Source of the DNA: Candidatus Nanosynbacter sp. BB002
Lineage (GTDB): Bacteria > Patescibacteriota > Saccharimonadia > Saccharimonadales > Saccharimonadaceae
Length of the DNA stretch: 32,000 nucleotides
Assembly (NCBI RefSeq): GCF_037013405.1
Contig: NZ_CP146064.1
Coordinates: 600,001 to 632,000 of the forward strand
Reading direction: 5' to 3'
The notes beneath the pieces are model-generated. The model worked only from the letters and a program-made list of their open reading frames with translations. It was not told the DNA's origin and did not search any database. Position 1 is the stretch's first letter. Every line of letters starts with the position of its first letter. Shown piece after piece: positions 4,420 to 24,870 of this stretch. The translations under genes were made by a program, and so were the position numbers.

Positions 4420-5238
4420 TTACAAGCCAAAAAGTGTTACCGTGTTATCGGTCGCTACTTTTTCAAAGTCGTGAAGCGCTAGCTTGCGCTCCGCCGCCCA
4501 ATACTTCGCCACCAACTCCACATATTCTGGCTTATTCATCTTACCACGAAATGGCTTTGGTGTCAAGAACGGTGCATCAGTTTCTAATAACAATCGCTCC
4601 AGTGGGATGGAGGCGAATAATTCTCGCTGTGTTTGGTCTTTAGTAAACGTGCTAATGCCGTTCAAACCAACGTATAATCCGCGAGCAAATCCCTTCTCTA
4701 AATTGGCGCGGGTATCGGTAAAACTATGTAGTACACCGCGCAGACCACGAAAATTATCAAAAATCGGCCAAAAATCATCCCACACCGACGGCTGGTCGGG
4801 CGCGCCATCGCGAATATGAAAACTAACCGGCAGATCATAATCCACCGCCAGCTGCAGCTGCGCCTCCAGTGCCTGAATTTGCACCTCGCGCGGGCTGTGA
4901 TTGTAATAATAATCAAGGCCAATCTCACCAATCGCCACAATCGGCGAATTCTCCGTCCTATTTTTTAGCAGCCGCTCTATCTCGCCCCAACCGTCCTTGC
5001 TGTCGTGCGGATGAACGCCAACCGCCGCCCACACACAGTCGTGGTTTGCGGCAAACTCTACTGCCTGTCGACTACTGCGTTCATCGGTGCCAATACAGAT
5101 CATGCCGATGCCCGCTGCGATTGACTGCTGGTATAATCCCTCACGACTATCCGTGAAGAACTCAGTGTCGTGCACATGGCAATGCGAATCGATCAAACGC
5201 AAATCTGTCGCCGTGTGATGCTCCGCTGCTAAATTCAT
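4420..5238 (-). CDS. tatD: TatD-family metal-dependent hydrolase/DNase
   Basis: 272 aa. Motifs are IDSHCHV, GEIGLDYYY, VSFHIRD, VLHSF and LLLETDAPFL. Confidence 0.9.
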   Translation of the reverse strand: MNLAAEHHTATDLRLIDSHCHVHDTEFFTDSREGLYQQSIAAGIGMICIGTDERSSRQAVEFAANHDCVWAAVGVHPHDSKDGWGEIERLLKNRTENSPIVAIGEIGLDYYYNHSPREVQIQALEAQLQLAVDYDLPVSFHIRDGAPDQPSVWDDFWPIFDNFRGLRGVLHSFTDTRANLEKGFARGLYVGLNGISTFTKDQTQRELFASIPLERLLLETDAPFLTPKPFRGKMNKPEYVELVAKYWAAERKLALHDFEKVATDNTVTLFGL

Positions 5239-7550: not shown

Positions 7551-8335
7551 CGCGCCCGCCATTCTTTGAGCAGCCGCCGCCAATCATCAATCGACAAATC
7601 TTCGGCACGAGCATCAGGTGAAATGTCAGACTTTTTTAGCAGCTGTTCGGCGCTAGCTTTACTGATGCCCAGTCCACCACTCAAGCTAGAGCGCAGTTTT
7701 TTACGTTTTGCGGAAAAACCAGCTTTGACAACACGGAAAAAATCTTTGTGGTCTTCAGGGGCGACTAGCGGTTCGGTGCGAGTTCTCAATACCACCACCT
7801 GCGAATCAACTTTTGGCGGTGGCGTAAAAAATTGCCGCGGTACTTCAATATCGAGTTCTGCCTCAGCAAATAGCTGCGCGCTAACCGCCAAAATACTCAT
7901 CCTGCCAGGCTTCGCTGCGATACGCTCGGCGACTTCTTTTTGTACCAGCAGCACCGCCAAACTCGGTTTATTCTCCGCCGTCATCAACTTTTCAACAATT
8001 TTACTGGTGATATAATATGGCACATTGGCGACTACTTTATAGTCCTTCGGCAGCTGATTTAGATCAAATTGCAAAATATCTTCGTTAATCACGTCCAGGT
8101 TTTTACCAGGAAACTGCCCCGGCAATTTACGCGCCAAATCCGCGTCAAATTCTACCGCTACCACACGCTGAGCTCGTGCCAACAACCGGCTGGTCAAGGT
8201 GCCGAGCCCCGGCCCAATCTCCAAAACCACATCATCTTCACCAAGTTCGGCCGCCTCGGCAATCTCTGCCAATATTTCCGGATCTCGCAGCCAATGCTGG
8301 CCTAATTCTTTTTTCGGTCCGCGAGCTGACGCCAT
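7547..8335 (-). CDS. rsmA: 16S rRNA (adenine1518/1519-N6)-dimethyltransferase
   Basis: 262 aa. It has LGQHWL, the SAM-binding motif VLEIGPGLGTLT and the NVPYYITS motif. Confidence 0.93.
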   Translation of the reverse strand: MASARGPKKELGQHWLRDPEILAEIAEAAELGEDDVVLEIGPGLGTLTSRLLARAQRVVAVEFDADLARKLPGQFPGKNLDVINEDILQFDLNQLPKDYKVVANVPYYITSKIVEKLMTAENKPSLAVLLVQKEVAERIAAKPGRMSILAVSAQLFAEAELDIEVPRQFFTPPPKVDSQVVVLRTRTEPLVAPEDHKDFFRVVKAGFSAKRKKLRSSLSGGLGISKASAEQLLKKSDISPDARAEDLSIDDWRRLLKEWRAR

Positions 8336-9037
8336 CTAACGCCCATCTCCGTTCGTCCAATCAGTCGCTAGGTCAAACCCATGCGGATGCCGAGCCGCAA
8401 AACCGCCAGTGTCATACACCTTGCCAGGACCCATGCTGGTTTCCACCACCGAACAGCGTGGATAATTACCATAATTTGCCGCTACTAAAATATAGCCATC
8501 TTTATCGACTTTGGCACCGTCGGCTCGCACCGTGTAGCCACCGCCACCGCACGCATTGATGACAACATTCATCGGCAGGTCATAGTAGGTTTCGCGGTGT
8601 GATATGCCGCGTGAGTCGGTAAACTGCTGGGCGCTTTTGGCTTTGGTCAAGGCATTCGGCAGCCTGGCACCAACAATCTCTATCTGTGCCACAGGCTGGT
8701 TGGTAATTTGTTCAGCAACTTTATTTTTCGCAACTTCCGTGCCGTCACCTTTTACCTTCACGCTATGCGTTACTTGCTTAGAACCGACAGCACCCGCCTG
8801 CTGTACCTGCTTAAAACCAACGGCGTGTGCGTAACTTTTTGCTGACTGTACCTCAAACTGAACTGGCTCTTCCGTGATGACGGTATATTCATGAATTGCT
8901 TCTCTTTCAGTAGCTTGGGCGAGTTTTCTCTGGACTGACGATGCCACCAGAACAATAGTCAACGCTGTTGCGGCCATTAGCCCTGTTATCGTCACTGCTA
9001 CTTTTGGAGTTCTCAGTAAAAACCAATACCGCTTCAT
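8336..9037 (-). CDS. Membrane-anchored G5 + 3D-domain cell-wall protein (YabE C-terminal type)
   Basis: N-terminal signal anchor. The G5-like block is GFKQVQQAGAVGSKQVTHSVKVKGDGT...IEIVGA. The C-terminal 3D/RlpA-like block is YYDLPMNV...DGYILVAANYGNYPRCSVVETSMGPGKVYDTGGF. Confidence 0.78.
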   Translation of the reverse strand: MKRYWFLLRTPKVAVTITGLMAATALTIVLVASSVQRKLAQATEREAIHEYTVITEEPVQFEVQSAKSYAHAVGFKQVQQAGAVGSKQVTHSVKVKGDGTEVAKNKVAEQITNQPVAQIEIVGARLPNALTKAKSAQQFTDSRGISHRETYYDLPMNVVINACGGGGYTVRADGAKVDKDGYILVAANYGNYPRCSVVETSMGPGKVYDTGGFAARHPHGFDLATDWTNGDGR

Positions 9038-16030: not shown

Positions 16031-17452
16031 TTACTCCAATGTCAAAACGCGTATTGTATCAGTTTTGCCAGCACCAGGACGGTGGCCATTGACCAATACC
16101 AATGTTGCTACGCCGTCACCAAAGTAGCCTTCATTTTTCAAATCACGTGCCAACTCAATGCCATGACAGCTCTCTGGTGGACGCATGTATACACGAGTGG
16201 CGTAGTTCAGCGCCAACTTCTGAGCTGTTTTGCAGTTGTCCGTCAAGCTGATGATCGGCATATTTGGACGAAATGCGCCAATATTGACCGCTGTGGCGCC
16301 CGTGTCGGTCTCTGCCACGATAGCATCTGCGTTGAGGTCGCGCGCCAAACGAGCAGCCGTGTAGCTGATGACGGCGTCATTTTTCTGGCGAGACTCGCTC
16401 TTCGCCACTGGCATGACGTCACTGTGTTCCTGAGTGTAGAGAATGGTTTTTCGCATTGACTCAACCGCTTCAATTGGGTATTTACCATTGGCGGTCTCAT
16501 CAGACAACATCACCACGTCAGCGCCCTGAATGACAGCGTTCGCCACGTCGCTTACTTCAGCACGGCTTGGCTCAGGATTGTCAACCATACTACCCATCAT
16601 CTGAGTTGCCACGATCACCATCTTACCGTGCTTACGACACAACGTGATAACCCGGCGCTGCACAACTGGCACAATCTCAGCACCGGCTTCCACCGCCAAG
16701 TCTCCTCGCGCCACCATGACACCATCGCTCAACTGCACGATTTTTTCCAGGTTTTCTGGAGAGATGGCAGATTTTGTCTCAATCTTGGCGATGATCTGCG
16801 CCTCAGAACCAAACGTCAGCAAACGCTGCCGCAAATCAACAATGTCAGATGCTGACTGCACAAAGCTCAAAGAAACATAATCAAAGTCTCGGCTAGCCCC
16901 CCACTCAATATCCTCTAGGTCTTTCTGGGTCAAAATATCACCGCCAAAATCAGTGTCAGGCAAATTCAAACCTTTTCGGCTCATCAAAAAGCCGTCATTC
17001 TGAATCTCAACCTTGATGGCAGTTTCGCTGACGATCTCACGAACGATTGAACGAATTTTACCGTCAAACATGTACAGCGGCTCGCCAACTTTCATCTTAC
17101 TGGCCAAGTTGTACTGCACTGGAAGATTGAAACTTCCGTCATGCTCAGCAATTTCCGAATCCAGCACCAACATATCACCAGTCTTCACTTCCAACATGTT
17201 GTCTTTCAGAATACCCAAACGAATCTTTGGACCCTGTAAGTCTTGCAAAATTGCAACTGGCTTGTCTTGCTCACGGCTGGCGGTACGAATCCACTCAATC
17301 TGCTGCGTGCGCTCTTCGTAGCTACCGTGGCTAAAGTTTAGGCGAAAGCCATTGGCGCCAGCGGCCATCAGCTCCGATACTTTTTCCTGGCTCATGGTTG
17401 CAGGACCAATTGTTGCCAAAATCTTGGTACGTTTAAAAATAGGTTTACTCAT
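16031..17452 (-). CDS. pyk: Pyruvate kinase
   Basis: 473 aa. Motifs are KILATIGPA, RLNFSHG, IAKIE, MVARGDLAVE and the ATQMM..M region. Confidence 0.95.
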   Translation of the reverse strand: MSKPIFKRTKILATIGPATMSQEKVSELMAAGANGFRLNFSHGSYEERTQQIEWIRTASREQDKPVAILQDLQGPKIRLGILKDNMLEVKTGDMLVLDSEIAEHDGSFNLPVQYNLASKMKVGEPLYMFDGKIRSIVREIVSETAIKVEIQNDGFLMSRKGLNLPDTDFGGDILTQKDLEDIEWGASRDFDYVSLSFVQSASDIVDLRQRLLTFGSEAQIIAKIETKSAISPENLEKIVQLSDGVMVARGDLAVEAGAEIVPVVQRRVITLCRKHGKMVIVATQMMGSMVDNPEPSRAEVSDVANAVIQGADVVMLSDETANGKYPIEAVESMRKTILYTQEHSDVMPVAKSESRQKNDAVISYTAARLARDLNADAIVAETDTGATAVNIGAFRPNMPIISLTDNCKTAQKLALNYATRVYMRPPESCHGIELARDLKNEGYFGDGVATLVLVNGHRPGAGKTDTIRVLTLE

Positions 17453-17459
17453 TTTTAAA

Positions 17460-17468
17460 ATTATATCA
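17460..17468 (-). promoter_or_regulatory. Extended -10 box TGaTATAAT, 7 nt upstream of the pyk ATG 17452 (candidate leaderless promoter of pyk-pgk-tpiA)
   Basis: The reverse complement of 17453-17470 is CGTGATATAATTTTAAAA, followed by ATG. No SD is present. Confidence 0.6.
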
Positions 17469-17617
17469 CGAAATAACAGTGATGGAAAATGGTTGTGTTA
17501 TCTGAGGTCTGATATCATTTAGTCAAGCTTTTATGTTGTCGTCCAGAGTTAATCCAGCATCAGATTCTTTAAAGTCAACATAAGCTAATGCTGACAAACT
17601 TAAGTACTCAATGGTTT

Positions 17618-18442
17618 TTACCATCTATCGCCCTCCTCTACTGGCATATTTTTTGACGTATCAATACAACCTTTTATCTCATTAATTGATGACAACTTAT
17701 CTCTATTACAATATTCTCTTGAAATAAGCTTGCCATTCTTCGATAAGTATATATTTACAGATATATCTTTAGGGCTCACTCCCACGTTTTTCGCATGCTC
17801 CATCATCTCGTGTATGCCACTAGCAAAACGACTCTCGTCTTTAATGTCACCATCATACTTAAAATTTAATCCATAAGCTAAATTGCCACGCTGCCCGACT
17901 TTATTTTCAGCCAAAAACACCTCCTCAAAAGTTGGTTTTTTCAGAGTGAAAGTACGCTCTACGTCTGGATCTATTACGCCTAGTCTAACTTTGACATCAA
18001 CGGGCATGTCTTTAAATATTTCTCTAACTTTGGGTTGAATTTTGGCAGTTTGTTCTTTTTGCCAAGTTCTTACTACATAGTCGTCGCTGTACTTCGTCTG
18101 GTTATCCACCCGAGAAATATGTATCTTTATACTTTTATCTGATTTAGGGTAGGCGTTCGCAGACCATACGCAAGAGATACCAAAAGCACCGCCATCGCAA
18201 CTAGGTTTTTCTACATCAAAATCTTGATTGTATTTGTTTTTTAGATAGCTAGTTATATTAGCCTGCTCGGTCGTATCACTAACCGAACGTTTATTAATTT
18301 CTCTATCTACTATAATTCCACCTACGATATACACTACCGTCATTATCACAACTATCGACGACAGAATAATTAAAATAACTCGCCGGGCTTTTTTATTATT
18401 TATGCGTGATTTGTTAGTCCTTTTGCTTTTACTCTTCGCCAT
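17618..18442 (-). CDS. Island paralog 1: Lys-rich N-tail + single TM + extracytoplasmic domain, unknown family
   Basis: 274 aa. The order is MAKSKSKRTNKSR..., then TM VILIILSSIVVIMTVVYIVGGIIV, then the conserved block ITSYLKNKYNQDFDVEKPSCDGGAFG...ANAYPKSDKSIKI shared with 18583-19311 and 20123-20884. AAGAGG lies upstream of the ATG. Local sequence is AT-rich. Confidence 0.75.
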   Translation of the reverse strand: MAKSKSKRTNKSRINNKKARRVILIILSSIVVIMTVVYIVGGIIVDREINKRSVSDTTEQANITSYLKNKYNQDFDVEKPSCDGGAFGISCVWSANAYPKSDKSIKIHISRVDNQTKYSDDYVVRTWQKEQTAKIQPKVREIFKDMPVDVKVRLGVIDPDVERTFTLKKPTFEEVFLAENKVGQRGNLAYGLNFKYDGDIKDESRFASGIHEMMEHAKNVGVSPKDISVNIYLSKNGKLISREYCNRDKLSSINEIKGCIDTSKNMPVEEGDRW

Positions 18443-18582
18443 ACAATACAGCCTCTTATTGCTTAGTTATTTATGATTTTATTTAAACATAGGCATGATA
18501 CAACATGCTAGTGGTCTTATCTGTAAAAGCAACTCTGAGGTTGGTAATTGCTTTGAAATTAGTATCAGATATTCTAGAGTGT

Positions 18583-19311
18583 TTAATCTCCCATCTTAAC
18601 AATGCACGACTCTATATCGTCTTTACTGCCCAATTTATTTTTATTAAAAAATATTTCGCATCTTATTTTAGAGTTATTGTTCCTGTTTACGTCTACATCT
18701 ACACTATACACACCCTCTTCTCTTAGTTTCTCTACAATCTTAAATATGTAAGAAGCCTTTTTGCTGTCGTTCGGAGCGTCTATTATTAATCTATACAGGA
18801 AGCCTTTGTCCTTGGTTTTATTGTCTTCATATTTAGATTGTTTATTCACAGAATCTACCAAATCTTCAGATAAGACAATTTCTGCCCGTGCACTATCTGC
18901 TTTATAGCCATTGCTATTAGCGTTAACTTCTTTGACAATAGATTCTAACTCCCTGCTGGCTTGGACTGACCAGATGGCGGCGATGTATTGGTCGCTACAG
19001 TCAGAGGGGTTCAAATAGCTGCAATCGATGTCAAATTTTAGTTTTGGGTTTGACACTAGGTATGCTTGCGACATCCATATACCGTTGACCCCAAAACCTC
19101 CGTGTTTATACTCGGGTCTTTCGACCTTAAAGTCTTCTTTATATTTATTGTTCAGATACTCAGACATCCCATTCTGGGCATTAGATATTTTATTTTCATT
19201 TTTGATATGTAAGACAATCGCTATGGCAACAATCAATATAACCAGGCTACAGAGGGCTATCAATAATTTGTATACTTTATGCTTCTTTGTCTTACTGACT
19301 TTCTTTGCCAT
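18583..19311 (-). CDS. Island paralog 2: Lys-rich N-tail + single TM + extracytoplasmic domain
   Basis: 242 aa from ATG 19311 (the ORF track uses GTG 19314). GGAGG lies 5 nt upstream. The shared block is NAQNGMSEYLNNKYKEDFKVERPEYKHGGFG...SQAYLVSNPKLKF. Confidence 0.75.
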   Translation of the reverse strand: MAKKVSKTKKHKVYKLLIALCSLVILIVAIAIVLHIKNENKISNAQNGMSEYLNNKYKEDFKVERPEYKHGGFGVNGIWMSQAYLVSNPKLKFDIDCSYLNPSDCSDQYIAAIWSVQASRELESIVKEVNANSNGYKADSARAEIVLSEDLVDSVNKQSKYEDNKTKDKGFLYRLIIDAPNDSKKASYIFKIVEKLREEGVYSVDVDVNRNNNSKIRCEIFFNKNKLGSKDDIESCIVKMGD

Positions 19312-19488
19312 CACCCCCTCCGGTTACTTTATAGATTATTTATTATTTTAGTTTAAGCACGACCCATACACAAGAGAGCGCTGCTATACAATCCTAGGTT
19401 ATAGGCTGTGAAGTTTCACCTTCCAGGAGCAGATAGGGTTAGCCCCTTTCTTAAAGGCAGAGAGCTAAATATCTGATGAATCAAAACC

Positions 19489-19923
19489 TCAGAGGCTATT
19501 CAGCTGATTAATAGATCCGACTACTGAGGCAATACCCCATACTGTCCCATTCATATAAATTATTTCTTGATAGGCCTCAGGATCTCCTAAGTCGTAGCCA
19601 CAATGCTGTAGTTCATATTTACCGTCGTATATCTTTCTGCCACATAAGTCTGGTTTGCCGATAAGCTCCTCGACCGTATCCCTATCCATGCCGATCTGGA
19701 CGTCGCTCATCTTCTTATAGAACTCGTCCTTAGTTGACCAAGGCCTACTGTTAGTATCGGAGCTAGCATTAGTATCAGAGACAGTATTAGGGCGAGGAGT
19801 GTGCTGCTGTAGATATAGGATTGTTACGACTCCAGCGGTAAAGCATATAGCTACGTAAACTAGCACAATAGCCACAAGCTTAATTAACTTTTTATCTTTA
19901 TAAGGATAACCGTTGTTTACCAT
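19489..19923 (-). CDS. Small membrane-anchored protein with a BamE/SmpA_OmlA-like (DUF3862-like) C-terminal domain
   Basis: 144 aa. The TM is LVAIVLVYVAICFTAGVVTILYL, followed by a Ser/Thr/Asn linker. Next comes MSDVQIGMDRDTVEELIGKP, the I.xGMxxxxVxxxxGxP motif typical of that fold. TAGAAT lies 6 nt upstream of the ATG. Confidence 0.65.
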   Translation of the reverse strand: MVNNGYPYKDKKLIKLVAIVLVYVAICFTAGVVTILYLQQHTPRPNTVSDTNASSDTNSRPWSTKDEFYKKMSDVQIGMDRDTVEELIGKPDLCGRKIYDGKYELQHCGYDLGDPEAYQEIIYMNGTVWGIASVVGSINQLNSL

Positions 19924-20005
19924 AAGCTTATTCTATTACGTTATGCTGGACAGTTCAATCTACTTGAATATCTAGAAATAGTTGGAAGCTCACCAGGTTT
20001 TTTAT

Positions 20006-20047
20006 TTACGCGCGTTTTTTCGTTCTTTTGCTTTTACTCTTCGCCGT
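20006..20047 (-). pseudogene. 5' relic of a fourth island paralog (start codon ATG->ACG, stop after 13 codons)
   Basis: A 21-nt exact match, cttttgcttttactcttcgcc, occurs at 20025-20045 and at 18420-18440 (the first codons of paralog 1). The relic reads ACG GCG AAG AGT AAA AGC AAA AGA ACG AAA AAA CGC GCG TAA (TAKSKSKRTKKRA*), against MAKSKSKRTNKSR in paralog 1. The upstream leader is also similar (GTATTACAC vs GTATTGTAT). Confidence 0.55.
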
Positions 20048-20122
20048 GTAATACATATCTCAGGCTTTTGATGTCTTTACACGGTAAGGTACTCAGCGCT
20101 AAATATTGTTCTGGTGTTAAAC

Positions 20123-20884
20123 TCATGTTGCTACAACCTCCCATCTCTTAAACATATTAACTATAGTGCTCTTATCCAAAGTCTTTAGTTTTTCAAGCGA
20201 GATAATTAAACCATGCTTTTCACGGCCATATTCTGCTGACTTATACGTAATGGTGGTATCTGTTTTTGCAGGCAGTTCACTAGTGAGTAGAAGTAGCTTA
20301 TTAACCGCTGCCATTTTTTCTTGAGTAGATAGATCTCTATTACGCAACTCAGATATGATAATATCGTACGGTATTTGCTTACCGTATCGATCGGCCGCAT
20401 CATTAAATAAAGGTACTTTGCCACTAATGCTAATGTCTCTCGTCTGTACACTCATTGAAGACTGAATGTCAATCTCATACTGCACTCTCTCGCCAAACAC
20501 CTTATTAATTACGGGCTGAAGTCGTTTACGCTCCTCACTAGTCCACACGGCACCGGCATAACCATCGCTAACACCTGACGATGATGACATGACGGTAAAG
20601 CGAATGGTTTTATCATCTTTTGGATATGCAATAGCATCAAAATGCCCCTCAACCGCAAGACCACCGCCCTTATGTTCTGGCTTTTCGACCACAAATTCTT
20701 GCCTATACTTATTTTGCAGATATTCCTTCATTTCAGCCTGAGCATTAGCGACATCAAGCTGGAATTTAATATAAAAACCGCCGACAATCATTGCTACCAA
20801 GATTAGCGGCGTGGCGAATAGTAGTAATACTTTGCGTGGTTTGACTGCATTAGTCTTGCTCAATTTGGATTGTTTCTTAGACAT
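20123..20884 (-). CDS. Island paralog 3: Lys-rich N-tail + single TM + extracytoplasmic domain
   Basis: 253 aa. The order is MSKKQSKLSKTN..., then TM VLLLFATPLILVAMIVGGFYI, then ANAQAEMKEYLQNKYRQEFVVEKPEHKGGGLAV...AIAYPKDDKTIRF. Confidence 0.75.
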   Translation of the reverse strand: MSKKQSKLSKTNAVKPRKVLLLFATPLILVAMIVGGFYIKFQLDVANAQAEMKEYLQNKYRQEFVVEKPEHKGGGLAVEGHFDAIAYPKDDKTIRFTVMSSSSGVSDGYAGAVWTSEERKRLQPVINKVFGERVQYEIDIQSSMSVQTRDISISGKVPLFNDAADRYGKQIPYDIIISELRNRDLSTQEKMAAVNKLLLLTSELPAKTDTTITYKSAEYGREKHGLIISLEKLKTLDKSTIVNMFKRWEVVAT

Positions 20885-20996
20885 AGGTAAGCTTCCCTAT
20901 ATACTGTTTATACTCACTTTCATTGTAACCTAACTACAAGCAATATACAACGAAAATATAGGCAGCCAAAGCTACCTATTTTTGATAATTCCTCTG

Positions 20997-21071
20997 TGGT
21001 GACCTTACCGGGAATCGAACCCGGATTGCCAGGATGAAAACCTGGTGTCCTAACCGTTAGACGATAAGGCC
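20997..21071 (-). tRNA. tRNA-Glu (anticodon UUC), CCA encoded
   Basis: The reverse complement folds as GGCCTTA TC GTCT AACGGTTA GGAC A CCAGG TTTTCAT CCTGG CAAT CCGGG TTCGATT CCCGG TAAGGTC A CCA. It is a 75-nt cloverleaf with all stems paired. Confidence 0.93.
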
Positions 21072-21175
21072 AACGTCACGAATTATAGCAAATTACCAGT
21101 CAGTTGTCTACAGGCGGCTGGCGCAATTTTCCGCTTCATTTCTCATTTGGCGTCGTTTCTTATATAATAATATCC

Positions 21176-21388
21176 ATGGCAAAGCAAAAGAAGAAACGCA
21201 ACAAAAAGTACACTGGCGTGGATGCCGCCACCAAACGGCCATCAATCACTCGCGTTAGTGCAGTCAACCGCTCACGGTTTGGGCAGTGGCGTCATGATCA
21301 CCAACGACAACTCAGCATTGCGCGTACTGTCGCCATCATCATCGTTGCGCTCATCATCATTGTTTCGGGCGTCATGAGCTTATTCTGA
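21176..21388 (+). CDS. Small basic tail-anchored membrane protein (70 aa), hypothetical
   Basis: Sequence is MAKQKKKRNKKYTG...IARTVAIIIVALIIIVSGVMSLF. The start is set at the internal ATG 21176 because TATAAT (21163-21168) lies 7 nt upstream. The ORF-track start at 21104 would lie upstream of that promoter. Confidence 0.5.
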   Translation: MAKQKKKRNKKYTGVDAATKRPSITRVSAVNRSRFGQWRHDHQRQLSIARTVAIIIVALIIIVSGVMSLF

Positions 21389-24000: not shown

Positions 24001-24078
24001 GGCGGATGTAGCTCAGTTGGTTAGAGCGCTGGATTGTGGCTCCGGAGGCCGTGGGTTCGACCCCCATCATTCGCCCCA
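24001..24078 (+). tRNA. tRNA-His (anticodon GUG) with genome-encoded G-1 and CCA
   Basis: Fold is G(-1) GCGGATG TA GCTC AGTTGGTTA GAGC G CTGGA TTGTGGC TCCGG AGGCC GTGGG TTCGACC CCCAT CATTCGC C CCA. G-1 lies opposite C73, as expected for bacterial tRNA-His. Confidence 0.93.
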
Positions 24079-24120
24079 AGCATTGATTTGTGACATAATA
24101 TGTGCTAAAATCACACGTAT

Positions 24121-24197
24121 GGGCCAGTAGCTCAGCTGGTTAGAGCACCTGCCTCTTAAGCAGGGTGTCGAGGGTTCGAGCCCCTCCTGGCCCTCCA
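24121..24197 (+). tRNA. tRNA-Lys (anticodon CUU), CCA encoded
   Basis: Fold is GGGCCAG TA GCTC AGCTGGTTA GAGC A CCTGC CTCTTAA GCAGG GTGTC GAGGG TTCGAGC CCCTC CTGGCCC T CCA. Confidence 0.95.
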
Positions 24198-24203
24198 AAA
24201 TAA

Positions 24204-24231
24204 CCTCACACGCGTGTGAGGATTTTATTTT
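24204..24231. terminator. Bidirectional rho-independent terminator
   Basis: Perfect hairpin cctcaca-cgcg-tgtgagg (24204-24221). It is followed by attttatttt on the plus strand. On the minus strand it is followed by TTATTTT (reverse complement of aaaataa). Confidence 0.7.
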
Positions 24232-24675
24232 GCTATGCATATGGGTTATACCGACGGGAAGGCGGTTCGTGAAATGATGACCTTGGTCTGTTGAGTCCCA
24301 TCGGGCGAGCATTGGTGTTTGAAGATTGCCGATTCGGCCTATCTGTTTCAGCCTTGGCAGTATGCGGTTTTCTGTTTGAAAGACTCTGCTCTGCCGACTG
24401 CTTGGATTTATGATCATACCCCGAAGCTACAACCCCCAATTCCATGCCAAAGCGACGCACATGCCCATGGCAGCTAGCCATGGCAGAGCTTTGATAATTA
24501 TTGATGTATTGGCGATCTGAATTTGCCCGATGTTTTCTGTTGATGCTTCGTCCCGTATGTCCGTACGCCGTAAAACCGTCAATCGACCCTCGTCGAGGAT
24601 CAGATAGTCTCATCATCAGTTCTCGAGACATGCGTGGTTTTCGACTCGCATCCATATTTGATACTCGTAATCCTA

Positions 24676-24752
24676 TGGCGCCCCGAGTAGGATTCGAACC
24701 TACGACCTTAGGCTTAGAAGTCCTCTGCTCTATCCAGCTGAGCTATCAGGGC
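24676..24752 (-). tRNA. tRNA-Arg (anticodon UCU), CCA encoded, anticodon stem with two non-Watson-Crick pairs
   Basis: The reverse complement folds as GCCCTGA TA GCTC AGCTGGATA GAGC A GAGGA CTTCTAA GCCTA AGGTC GTAGG TTCGAAT CCTAC TCGGGGC G CCA. The acceptor, D and T arms are good. The anticodon stem has G27.A43 and A31.G39 mismatches. Confidence 0.85.
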
Positions 24753-24755
24753 GTA

Positions 24756-24784
24756 TTCACATTATAGCATCTTTCTGCTACAAT
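24756..24784 (+). promoter_or_regulatory. Sigma-70-type promoter of tRNA-Gly (and probably the downstream phosphorylase gene)
   Basis: -35 TTCACA (24756-24761), 17-nt spacer, then TGc + TACAAT (24779-24784). The tRNA starts at 24796. It overlaps the divergent tRNA-Arg promoter. Confidence 0.55.
24761..24769 (-). promoter_or_regulatory. Extended -10 box TGcTATAAT, 8 nt upstream of the tRNA-Arg 5' end
   Basis: The reverse complement of 24761-24769 is TGCTATAAT. It is followed by GTGAATAC and then G1 of the tRNA (24752). Confidence 0.5.
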
Positions 24785-24795
24785 GATACAAGCTT

Positions 24796-24870
24796 GCGGG
24801 TGTAGTACAGCGGTTAGTATGCAAGTTTTCCAAACTTGAGATCGGAGTTCGATTCTCCGCACCCGCACCA
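24796..24870 (+). tRNA. tRNA-Gly (anticodon UCC), CCA encoded
   Basis: Fold is GCGGGTG TA GTAC AGCGGTTA GTAT G CAAGT TTTCCAA ACTTG AGAT CGGAG TTCGATT CTCCG CACCCGC A CCA. Confidence 0.95.

Follow-up and report, generated by a model that had tools for sequence, protein, structure and literature searches.

Between pyk and a tRNA-Glu gene of Candidatus Nanosynbacter sp. BB002 lies an AT-rich island (positions 17453–20996 of the window, by which we mean the whole 32,000-nt stretch analyzed here, positions 600,001–632,000 of contig NZ_CP146064.1), and the question it raises is what a tandem set of diverged, membrane-anchored paralogs is doing at this site. We consider it probable that the island is an orphan immunity array, left without a toxin, against secreted lipase toxins of oral Saccharibacteria: In relatives the same array stands directly before a secreted lipase gene, so that the paralogs are most likely immunity genes that have outlived their toxin. 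The analysis draws together gene linkage, relics, mosaicism, copy-number variation, purifying selection, and the predicted topology and fold of the proteins. A first-pass annotation of this DNA had listed an orphan immunity-type array against membrane-acting toxins among its hypotheses; with the lipase coupling found in relatives and the lipase 5' stubs found in the window, this is now the favored reading. Four lipase-gene fragments between the island genes had escaped that annotation.

The island encodes four proteins, of which three belong to a family of ~250-aa paralogs that we call FAM as a working name (g1, g2, g3 and their homologs). All four are open reading frames (ORFs), and the E values are those of the family hidden Markov model (HMM):

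17618–18442, minus strand: g1, FAM paralog of 274 aa (E 2.6e-56)
18583–19311, minus strand: g2, FAM paralog of 242 aa (E 3.6e-55)
19489–19923, minus strand: small144, a 144-aa membrane-anchored protein with a BLIP/BamE-like ectodomain, leader gene of FAM arrays
20123–20884, minus strand: g3, FAM paralog of 253 aa, putative lipase immunity protein (E 1.4e-71)

The partner of these genes becomes visible in related loci, where an array of one to five FAM genes is followed within 0–10 nt by a class-3-lipase-like gene. In a second clade of loci (L006–L031) tblastn places a lipase gene directly after the array in every locus, intact (~862 aa) in ten and truncated elsewhere, and also reveals lipase 5' fragments of 20–64 codons after internal FAM copies. 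The last FAM gene of L012 overlaps by 4 nt a lipase ORF that starts MNLKVEQYLALSSLAY and encodes a GHSLGG motif and C-terminal RTX repeats (PF00353, PF06594). Genes resembling g3, small144, and g2 precede a 2061-aa lipase-RTX protein in L028, the distant FAM member P0121 is followed 3 nt on by a 2682-aa lipase-RTX protein in L036, and the order of FAM and then lipase recurs in L037–L039 and L120. In L040 and L041 the arrangement comprises tRNA-Glu(CUC), a Peptidase_C39-ABC (ATP-binding cassette) transporter, an HlyD/AprE-type adaptor, a small144 homolog (small138 in L040), one FAM gene, a 1076-aa lipase-RTX protein, and pyk-pgk-tpi; a complete system is thus found beside pyk, at the very site of the island in the window. 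An HlyD/AprE-type adaptor also directly follows the truncated lipase of L001. Two ORFs without a Pfam match occur in these surroundings, one of 459 aa between the adaptor and small138 (L040 5431–6810, minus strand) and one of 274 aa between tRNA-Glu and FAM (L001 8821–9645, plus strand), the latter also negative with the FAM HMM.

The partner product is a putative class 3 lipase and RTX exoprotein, judged by its Lipase_3 score, catalytic triad, and RTX repeats. The Lipase_3 score reaches 44.2 bits in L028 (cut-off 22), lipase homologs carry a precomputed match to PF26363 ("Phospholipase-like"), and the FRGT and GHSLGG motifs align to the fungal lipase 3ngm in the PDB. Across 12 aligned lipase domains the serine of the GxSxG motif (G(H/Y)SLGG) and Asp197 are invariant, and a His is present in 10. 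PF00353 is annotated, again precomputed, in the products of L036 and L040. The lipase-RTX protein is a single 862-aa ORF in L009 (11416–14004) and is divided into ORFs of 98 and 770 aa in different frames in L012 (12346–14951), a split due to a frameshift or an assembly error. Short lipases of 330–343 aa without RTX also occur (L037 8356–9348; P0204, which is L120 8001–9032), and others of 2061–2682 aa carry many RTX/HCBP units, which indicates that the export module is highly variable. A gene for an IS1595-family DDE transposase is found ~2.5 kb downstream of the intact lipase of L120 (11594–12244, minus strand), where the outer flanks differ.

The window itself retains four short 5' fragments of such a lipase gene, three of them directly after a FAM gene:

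20037–20126, minus strand: lipase 5' relic no. 1, MSLTPEQYLALSTL..., its start overlapping the g3 stop (ATGA); tblastn against the L001 lipase, E 0.028
19417–19464, minus strand: lipase fragment no. 2, LSAFKKGANPICSWKV, about residues 48–63, in the spacer between small144 and g2; a weak tblastn match to the N-terminus of the L028 lipase, E 0.004
18486–18586, minus strand: lipase 5' relic no. 3, internally deleted (LNTLEYLIL ... ISDTNFKAITNLRVAFTDKTTSMLYHAYV), after g2
17526–17624, minus strand: lipase 5' relic no. 4, MVKTIEYLSLSALAYVDFKESDAGLTLDDNIKA and then a stop, overlapping the g1 stop by 7 nt

An HMM of the lipase N-terminus, built from other loci only, was run on all 1375 six-frame segments of the window, and its two best matches were the ORFs overlapping the stops of g1 (17526–17624, MVKTIEYLSLSALAYVDFKES..., E 5e-4) and g3 (20037–20147, MSLTPEQYLALSTL..., E 6e-3). 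Relic no. 3 matches the tail of an 88-aa relic ORF that follows a g2-like gene in L038 (69% over 29 aa, E 1.4e-10; 84% over 89 nt at the DNA level). Relic no. 4 shares 91% identity over 32 aa with the relic found behind the g1 ortholog in L038 (E 1e-14) and is 59% identical to the intact lipase of L037 (E 5e-5), and its first 27 residues are those of P0204, an intact lipase of 343 aa whose gene stands after the g1 ortholog of L120 with the same 7-nt overlap. The DNA of L120 remains homologous to the window, at 96%, through g1 and ceases to be so at window position 17539, which shows that a deletion removed the lipase gene between about codon 29 and the pyk promoter. The two arrays are otherwise colinear, in the order g3, small144, g2, stub, g1, and lipase, of which the window has only a stub.

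The FAM proteins share one layout: a basic tail rich in Lys and Ser, a single hydrophobic transmembrane (TM) helix, and an ectodomain. Pairwise identity among g1, g2, and g3 is 25–30%, and a block of the form Y/L/N/K/Y...F.VE.P...AY...SD.Y...W is invariant in all three. The first-pass annotation had described three genes of the same architecture at these positions and a conserved opening block, with which the ORFs, the alignment, and the AlphaFold2 model of g3 agree. In this model (predicted local distance difference test score, pLDDT, 84.7; predicted template modeling score, pTM, 0.76) a long helix of residues 16–60, including the TM segment, leads into a two-lobed alpha/beta ectodomain. None of the FAM proteins read has a lipobox, the TM anchor standing in its place. 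Homologs of g3 such as P0001 and P0013 begin 13 codons further upstream, with MKVSINSRQGSLPMSKKQ... (window 20885–20940, minus strand); in the window a TAG closes this extension (ATGAAAGTGAGTATAAACAGTATATAG), so that the start of g3 must be 20884. A further copy has left a trace as well, since the 5' relic of a fourth FAM gene noticed earlier is real:

20015–20055, minus strand: 5' remnant of a fourth FAM copy of the g1 kind, its ATG start now ACG; direct repeat D1, sharing 85% identity with the g1 start region (18410–18450)

That the ectodomain belongs to no named family was proposed earlier and still stands: g1, g2, g3, and small144 have no match above threshold in Pfam, NCBIfam, PHROGs, or PADLOC. 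Matches below threshold that are driven by the TM segment (Orf78, DUF6080, FliL, EmrA, and a PHROG superinfection-exclusion family) were not used, and in a Pfam scan of 93 FAM members with a cut-off of E <= 0.01 YfjL_N was matched by 3 (best E 6.7e-6), too sparsely to claim membership. A profile search of 1.84 billion cluster representatives (50%-identity clusters) gave 541 FAM proteins at E <= 1e-3; among the best 150 of these 541 matches nearly all are 180–285 aa long and most align along most of the profile. All 30 of the FAM loci from GTDB contigs, taken as one genome per species, come from metagenome-assembled genomes of Candidatus Saccharibacteria or Nanosynbacter, and the one FAM-bearing metagenome record with a stated source is from a human oral sample.

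A Foldseek search of the PDB with the g3 model returned a single significant match, 4gl6 (DUF5037; E 5e-5, probability 1.0), with TM-scores of only ~0.35. With this protein the FAM profile also aligns through its conserved block (MesYLeeKYgkeFvVe vs. IETYLQEEYGEEFEVL, E 0.02), yet 0 of the 93 FAM members match PF16440 (DUF5037) at E <= 0.01, a model to which the 4gl6 fragment itself scores 224 bits. Given the structure and profile matches and the failure to match PF16440, FAM appears to be a remote relative of DUF5037 and is not a member of it.

The accompanying small144 has 43 homologs of 62–97% identity with two invariant Cys, and it stands upstream of the FAM arrays in L028, L037–L040, and L120. 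The protein had been called BamE-like at first sight, a label that the predicted fold would support; in Pfam, BamE (E 0.021) and DUF3192 (E 0.0035) are both below the cut-off. Its AlphaFold2 model (pLDDT 79.5 overall, >90 for residues 61–140, the ectodomain) matches 3d4e best in Foldseek, a putative beta-lactamase-inhibitor protein of Streptococcus mutans (E 4e-3, probability 1.0), followed by BLIP, BamE, and OsmE. BLIP-type domains are proteinaceous inhibitors of serine hydrolases, which makes it conceivable, as a speculation from the model, that small144 might act as a second inhibitor.

The FAM genes vary in number and in content. Full loci have one to five tandem copies by the family HMM, and close relatives of the window two or three. 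The two-copy alleles of L003, L029, L030, and L032 do not have window positions 20652–19187: The alignment jumps from 20652 to 19184/19187 with an overlap of ~97 nt in the subject. This junction falls inside the conserved block:

20652–20748, minus strand: g3 conserved block NAQ..M.EYL.NKY...F.VE.PE.K.GG, crossover site; the g2 equivalent is at about 19088–19184

The junction within this ~97-nt block yields a chimera of the g3 N-terminal and g2 C-terminal parts, and P0025 and P0026 are examples among database proteins. Other exchanges affect single parts of genes: g3 from about codon 93 to its stop (20607–20114) is another cassette in L015, L016, and L026, the C-terminal third of g1 (17899–17602) is replaced in L003 and L016, and another N-terminal part of g2 (19285–18999) is present in L026 and L028. 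When 122 FAM copies were typed by segment, one tail type was found joined to four ectodomain types and, in the second clade, five stable FAM types were found that vary in number and order.

The C-terminal halves had been thought to diverge rapidly, a view that this comparison does not support in that form: Rather than mutation alone, it is cassette replacement and unequal crossover that separate them, and orthologous g1 and g2 have ratios of nonsynonymous to synonymous substitution rates (dN/dS) of 0.04–0.3. In detail, orthologous segments give 0.06–0.24 for g1 and 0.04–0.32 for g2; g3 gives 0.25–0.95 with few underlying changes. Both g1 and g2 are under purifying selection where they are orthologous, and these ratios rule out decaying pseudogenes. 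The synonymous rate (dS) itself differs along the locus, being 0.02–0.12 for g3 and small144 against 0.09–0.45 for pyk, pgk, and hisK in the same comparisons; relative to L004, L015, and L016 it is 0.02–0.06 for g3 and small144 (19489–20884) and several-fold higher, 0.12–0.45, for the three flanking genes. The low dS of this part relative to the flanks suggests recent horizontal replacement or exchange of the g3–small144 segment between lineages.

The borders of the island are as follows:

20997–21071, minus strand: tRNA-Glu(UUC), anticodon ttc (ARAGORN; Rfam 63.9 bits)
16031–17452, minus strand: pyk (ORF), bordering the island with its start at 17452

An AT-rich island with these two borders had been delimited from a few counts by hand, and the counts are exact (GC content 0.35, 0.283, and 0.367 in three 60-nt lines inside, 0.567 and 0.55 in two outside); a sliding-window profile confirms the dip. 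The island has a GC content of 0.380 (38.0%) against 0.492 across the rest of the window, and 215 windows of the same size outside it have 0.4948 +/- 0.0059 with a minimum of 0.4825. Windows of 500 nt average 0.382 inside (maximum 0.426) and 0.493 outside (standard deviation 0.028). GC is low at each of the three codon positions and in the spacers too; at third codon positions it is 0.34–0.41 as opposed to 0.43–0.56 in the flanking genes.

The other ORFs of the island are short overlaps of its four genes, and the Rfam scan reports only the tRNA, which rules out any other non-coding RNA covered by it; promoter and terminator scans gave nothing beyond shuffled expectation. None of the four island proteins matches an integrase, transposase, or recombinase family, and the last 20 nt of tRNA-Glu, its 3' end, are not repeated in the window with up to 3 mismatches allowed, which agrees with the earlier impression that the island does not look like an integrative element of the classical type.

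The order hisK, orf94, tRNA-Glu, array, pyk, pgk is kept in all eight of the close relatives in which both flanks are present (flank DNA 90–97% identical), and only the content of the array varies. Scoring of presence, absence, and copy number across relatives, as proposed in the first-pass annotation, thus shows copy number varying between 2 and 3 and no empty site among the eight. tRNA-Glu is a kept left border in several genomic contexts: It adjoins the array in L003, L004, L015, L016, L026, L029, L030, L032, L001, and L005, and the homology of L120 and L037–L039 to the window extends through it. The locus had also been taken for compositionally foreign. It is not a foreign insertion peculiar to the window, with the array at its site in eight of eight relatives and a low GC content that recurs as a family property in ~40 loci: In all full loci examined the array has 0.37–0.41, whatever its context, with surroundings mostly of 0.47–0.53 (0.425 in L028), and the lipase gene adjacent to the GC-poor array of L009 has an ordinary 0.48. 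Because the arrays are GC-poor in every locus, low GC is a trait of the family and not of this insertion site.

Two neighboring features may be recorded here. A 94-aa ORF (21104–21388, plus strand) between tRNA-Glu and hisK, whose product is rich in Lys at the N-terminus (MAKQKKKRNKKY...) and has a hydrophobic helix at the C-terminus, is 95–97% conserved in all close relatives and can still be recognized, at 60% identity, in L001 and L005. Four clustered tRNA genes (24002–24870; His-GTG, Lys-CTT, Arg-TCT, Gly-TCC), 3 kb from the island, are syntenic in relatives.

We propose the following model for a system of this kind. A secreted enzyme whose N-terminal domain is class-3-lipase-like and phospholipase-like would attack membrane lipids from the exterior of the cell; it would usually carry C-terminal RTX calcium-binding repeats and would sometimes be encoded beside a C39-ABC transporter and an HlyD-type adaptor. 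FAM proteins would be anchored by their N-terminus on the outer face of the cytoplasmic membrane, and the predicted basic tail, single TM helix, and ectodomain would place them where an extracellular lipase acts. There the ectodomain may bind the lipase domain and block it at the membrane surface, protecting the producer and its kin. With the export signal at the C-terminus, the toxin domain would be N-terminal and the immunity gene immediately upstream. Recombination in the FAM block and the first ~60 lipase codons would then stack displaced modules, each made of a FAM gene and a lipase 5' stub, upstream of the active gene, and the same recombination could swap C-terminal cassettes and change copy number. 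In the lineage of the window the lipase gene would have been lost after about codon 29 and the three FAM genes and small144 retained, presumably because they still protect against the lipases of neighboring Saccharibacteria. Copy variation, chimeras, cassette swaps, retention without the toxin in eight syntenic relatives, and the dN/dS values are the typical behavior of immunity genes. The toxicity of the lipase, its binding and neutralization by FAM, and the identity of the target cells are what we infer from this pattern.

Several points weigh against this account. The binding and inhibition of the lipase by FAM would follow from gene arrangements and monomer models, and a PDB search with the FAM model yielded none of the known immunity proteins against lipases. 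One nearly invariant lipase core goes with five divergent FAM types in the second clade, where only the first ~50 lipase codons co-vary with the adjacent FAM type; with five types for one core, one-to-one specificity would be an assumption. The Lipase_3 threshold is passed by some members only, L009 and L017 scoring 18.7 bits. To our knowledge, RTX proteins have no established export route in a monoderm-like cell of the Candidate Phyla Radiation (CPR). Finally, homologs of the lipase, the C39-ABC transporter, and the adaptor are absent across the 32-kb window, and as this is the part of the genome covered, a lipase gene may lie elsewhere.

The same observations can be read in other ways. FAM might serve the lipase as an accessory factor, be it a membrane-anchored foldase, a tether keeping the RTX-lipase at the epibiont surface, or a partner in secretion, and the tight translational coupling of the two genes would suit such a role. 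Lif, the lipase-specific foldase of family I lipases, has an N-terminal membrane anchor and an extracytoplasmic domain, as has FAM, and the co-variation of the N-terminal ~50 lipase residues with the adjacent FAM type could mean physical contact. A factor of this kind should nevertheless be present in single copy and be lost together with its enzyme, whereas up to five divergent copies are found per lipase and toxin-less arrays are under purifying selection in eight syntenic relatives; the mosaic, copy-variable behavior fits known immunity arrays, and we regard an accessory role as unlikely. Mosaicism and copy variation in surface-exposed proteins would also be expected of adhesins or recognition proteins for contact with the actinobacterial host, or of proteins that evade phages or antibodies, with the lipase merely part of a shared surface-virulence locus. 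Saccharibacteria are obligate epibionts, C-terminal cassettes are swapped between near-identical strains, and the dS of the array below that of its flanks suggests recent exchange, all of which is compatible with variable surface proteins. Left unexplained would be the lipase gene or stub at the end of every array and the lipase 5' fragment that each internal copy has of its own; moreover the ectodomain is a compact alpha/beta module of ~200 aa without repeats or a known adhesin fold, and its membrane-proximal block is the most conserved part, so that we hold this explanation, too, to be improbable.

Least probable of all, and to our minds very unlikely, is the view that a foreign genomic island with cargo of unassigned function was acquired recently and inserted itself at tRNA-Glu. 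The low GC content and the adjacent tRNA gene invite the idea, as do the recurrence of the same tRNA-Glu and cassette with other outer flanks in L120, L037–L039, and L028 and the IS1595-type transposase ~2.5 kb downstream of the L120 lipase. Set against this are four island proteins without an integrase, transposase, or recombinase match, the lack of a tRNA-derived direct repeat, the presence of the array at the same site in 8/8 relatives with both flanks, and a complete system beside pyk in the more distant L040; low GC, furthermore, is specific to FAM genes everywhere, and the L009 lipase has 0.48.

Beyond the window, it is possible, and here we are more tentative, that Saccharibacteria carry a polymorphic RTX-type secreted phospholipase toxin and, dedicated to it, immunity proteins of a new superfamily that are tethered to the membrane (FAM, a distant relation of DUF5037). 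These bacteria live as obligate epibionts in the human mouth, are abundant there and associated with disease, and a role has been assigned to very few of their genes. If the proposal is true, it would be the first toxin/immunity system in these CPR (Patescibacteria) epibionts, as far as the searched literature shows, and would imply either warfare among epibionts on one host cell or a membrane-attacking enzyme directed against the host, from which the epibiont would have to protect the lipids it has scavenged for itself. The system would then offer direct genomic evidence of contact-independent antagonism by ultrasmall bacteria, against each other or against host membranes, explain a recurrent, strain-variable low-GC locus in Saccharibacteria genomes, and give a function to the DUF5037 proteins of gut Firmicutes, a family structurally solved and unannotated. 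Literature searches found no paper that ties Saccharibacteria to a lipase toxin, an RTX protein, or an immunity array, and none on DUF5037; lipase and RTX go unmentioned in Wang et al. 2023 (PMC10633639) and in a 2026 preprint on host defense. Since Saccharibacteria are naturally competent and genetically tractable (PMC10633639), the prediction is testable.

Systems of this kind are known, and what is new lies in the phylum, the family of the immunity proteins, and the RTX type of the toxin. The nearest parallels are the reverse-arranged lipases of type VII secretion systems (T7SS) in staphylococci, a toxin/immunity logic that would here be extended to another phylum, export module (RTX), and immunity fold. 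TslA of Staphylococcus aureus combines a phospholipase domain at its N-terminus with a targeting domain at its C-terminus. The TilA genes, which encode DUF576 lipoproteins, lie 5' of it in variable copy number, and recombination across a stretch that is conserved within them shuffles their sequences (PMC10730906). FAM genes resemble TilA/Til1 (DUF576, Lpl/Csa) in this "reverse" layout, with the immunity genes 5' and directly beside the N-terminal toxin domain, and they too are copy-variable, with a crossover mapped to the ~97-nt conserved block, the chimeras P0025 and P0026, and mosaic segment types. They differ in that TilA is a lipoprotein of an unrelated family and FAM is TM-anchored (DUF576 is matched neither by the proteins of the window nor, at E <= 0.01, by any of 93 members), and the secretion system is not the same.

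Til2/TilM proteins (DUF1433) neutralize TslM, a reverse lipase toxin of the T7SS. They consist of an extracellular domain behind an N-terminal TM signal anchor and form non-identical tandem arrays of variable number that were first noticed at toxin-less loci; according to their authors the toxin genes may be absent or frameshifted while the immunity genes are almost always kept (PMC13560087). FAM shares the N-terminal TM anchor with ectodomain, the tandem, non-identical copies in variable number, and the toxin-less loci, and its lipase neighbor, present in relatives and reduced to 5' relics in the window, likewise combines an N-terminal lipase with a C-terminal export domain. Neither the three proteins of the window nor any of the 93 members (E <= 0.01) match DUF1433, however; FAM has ~250 aa in two sub-domains as against 149 aa, its partner would be exported through RTX and an ABC/HlyD-type exporter rather than an LXG-like domain and T7SS, and it occurs in a CPR epibiont rather than in Bacillota, with an immunity function that is putative here.

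At the level of the ectodomain the best structural match is DUF5037 (PF16440; 4gl6, Ruminococcus gnavus RUMGNA_01148), which is extracytoplasmic, ~250 aa long, and shares the conserved block, and which differs in being a lipoprotein (lipobox LLNGC) where FAM is TM-anchored. On a human gut contig resembling R. gnavus (L042 3129–13582) the DUF5037 lipoprotein gene (7914–8735) stands in a same-strand run of small genes, together with SUKH-3, SUKH-1/SUKH_6, and DUF6892 genes. A 129-aa protein encoded in this run (4420–4809) is hydrophobic in an N-terminal segment, carries a BamE-like motif in its sequence, and resembles small144. The gene run looks like a poly-immunity island, and the place of the DUF5037 gene among SUKH immunity genes is an independent hint for an immunity function of FAM.

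More general parallels exist in other toxin systems. The Tle phospholipase effectors of type VI secretion systems (T6SS) are antibacterial, act outside the cytoplasm, and are neutralized by periplasmic Tli immunity proteins. The logic proposed for FAM, an extracytoplasmic immunity protein against a lipase, is the same; the FAM system has no T6SS, and no sequence or fold match to Tli turned up, although no comparison was aimed at Tli. In the polymorphic toxin loci of contact-dependent growth inhibition (CDI) and Rhs systems, displaced modules of an immunity gene and a toxin-gene fragment pile up beside the active gene, much as displaced modules of FAM and a lipase fragment do here. The geometry is mirrored, the fragments of FAM loci being toxin 5' ends that lie upstream, because the variable, recombining end of the toxin is the N-terminal one.

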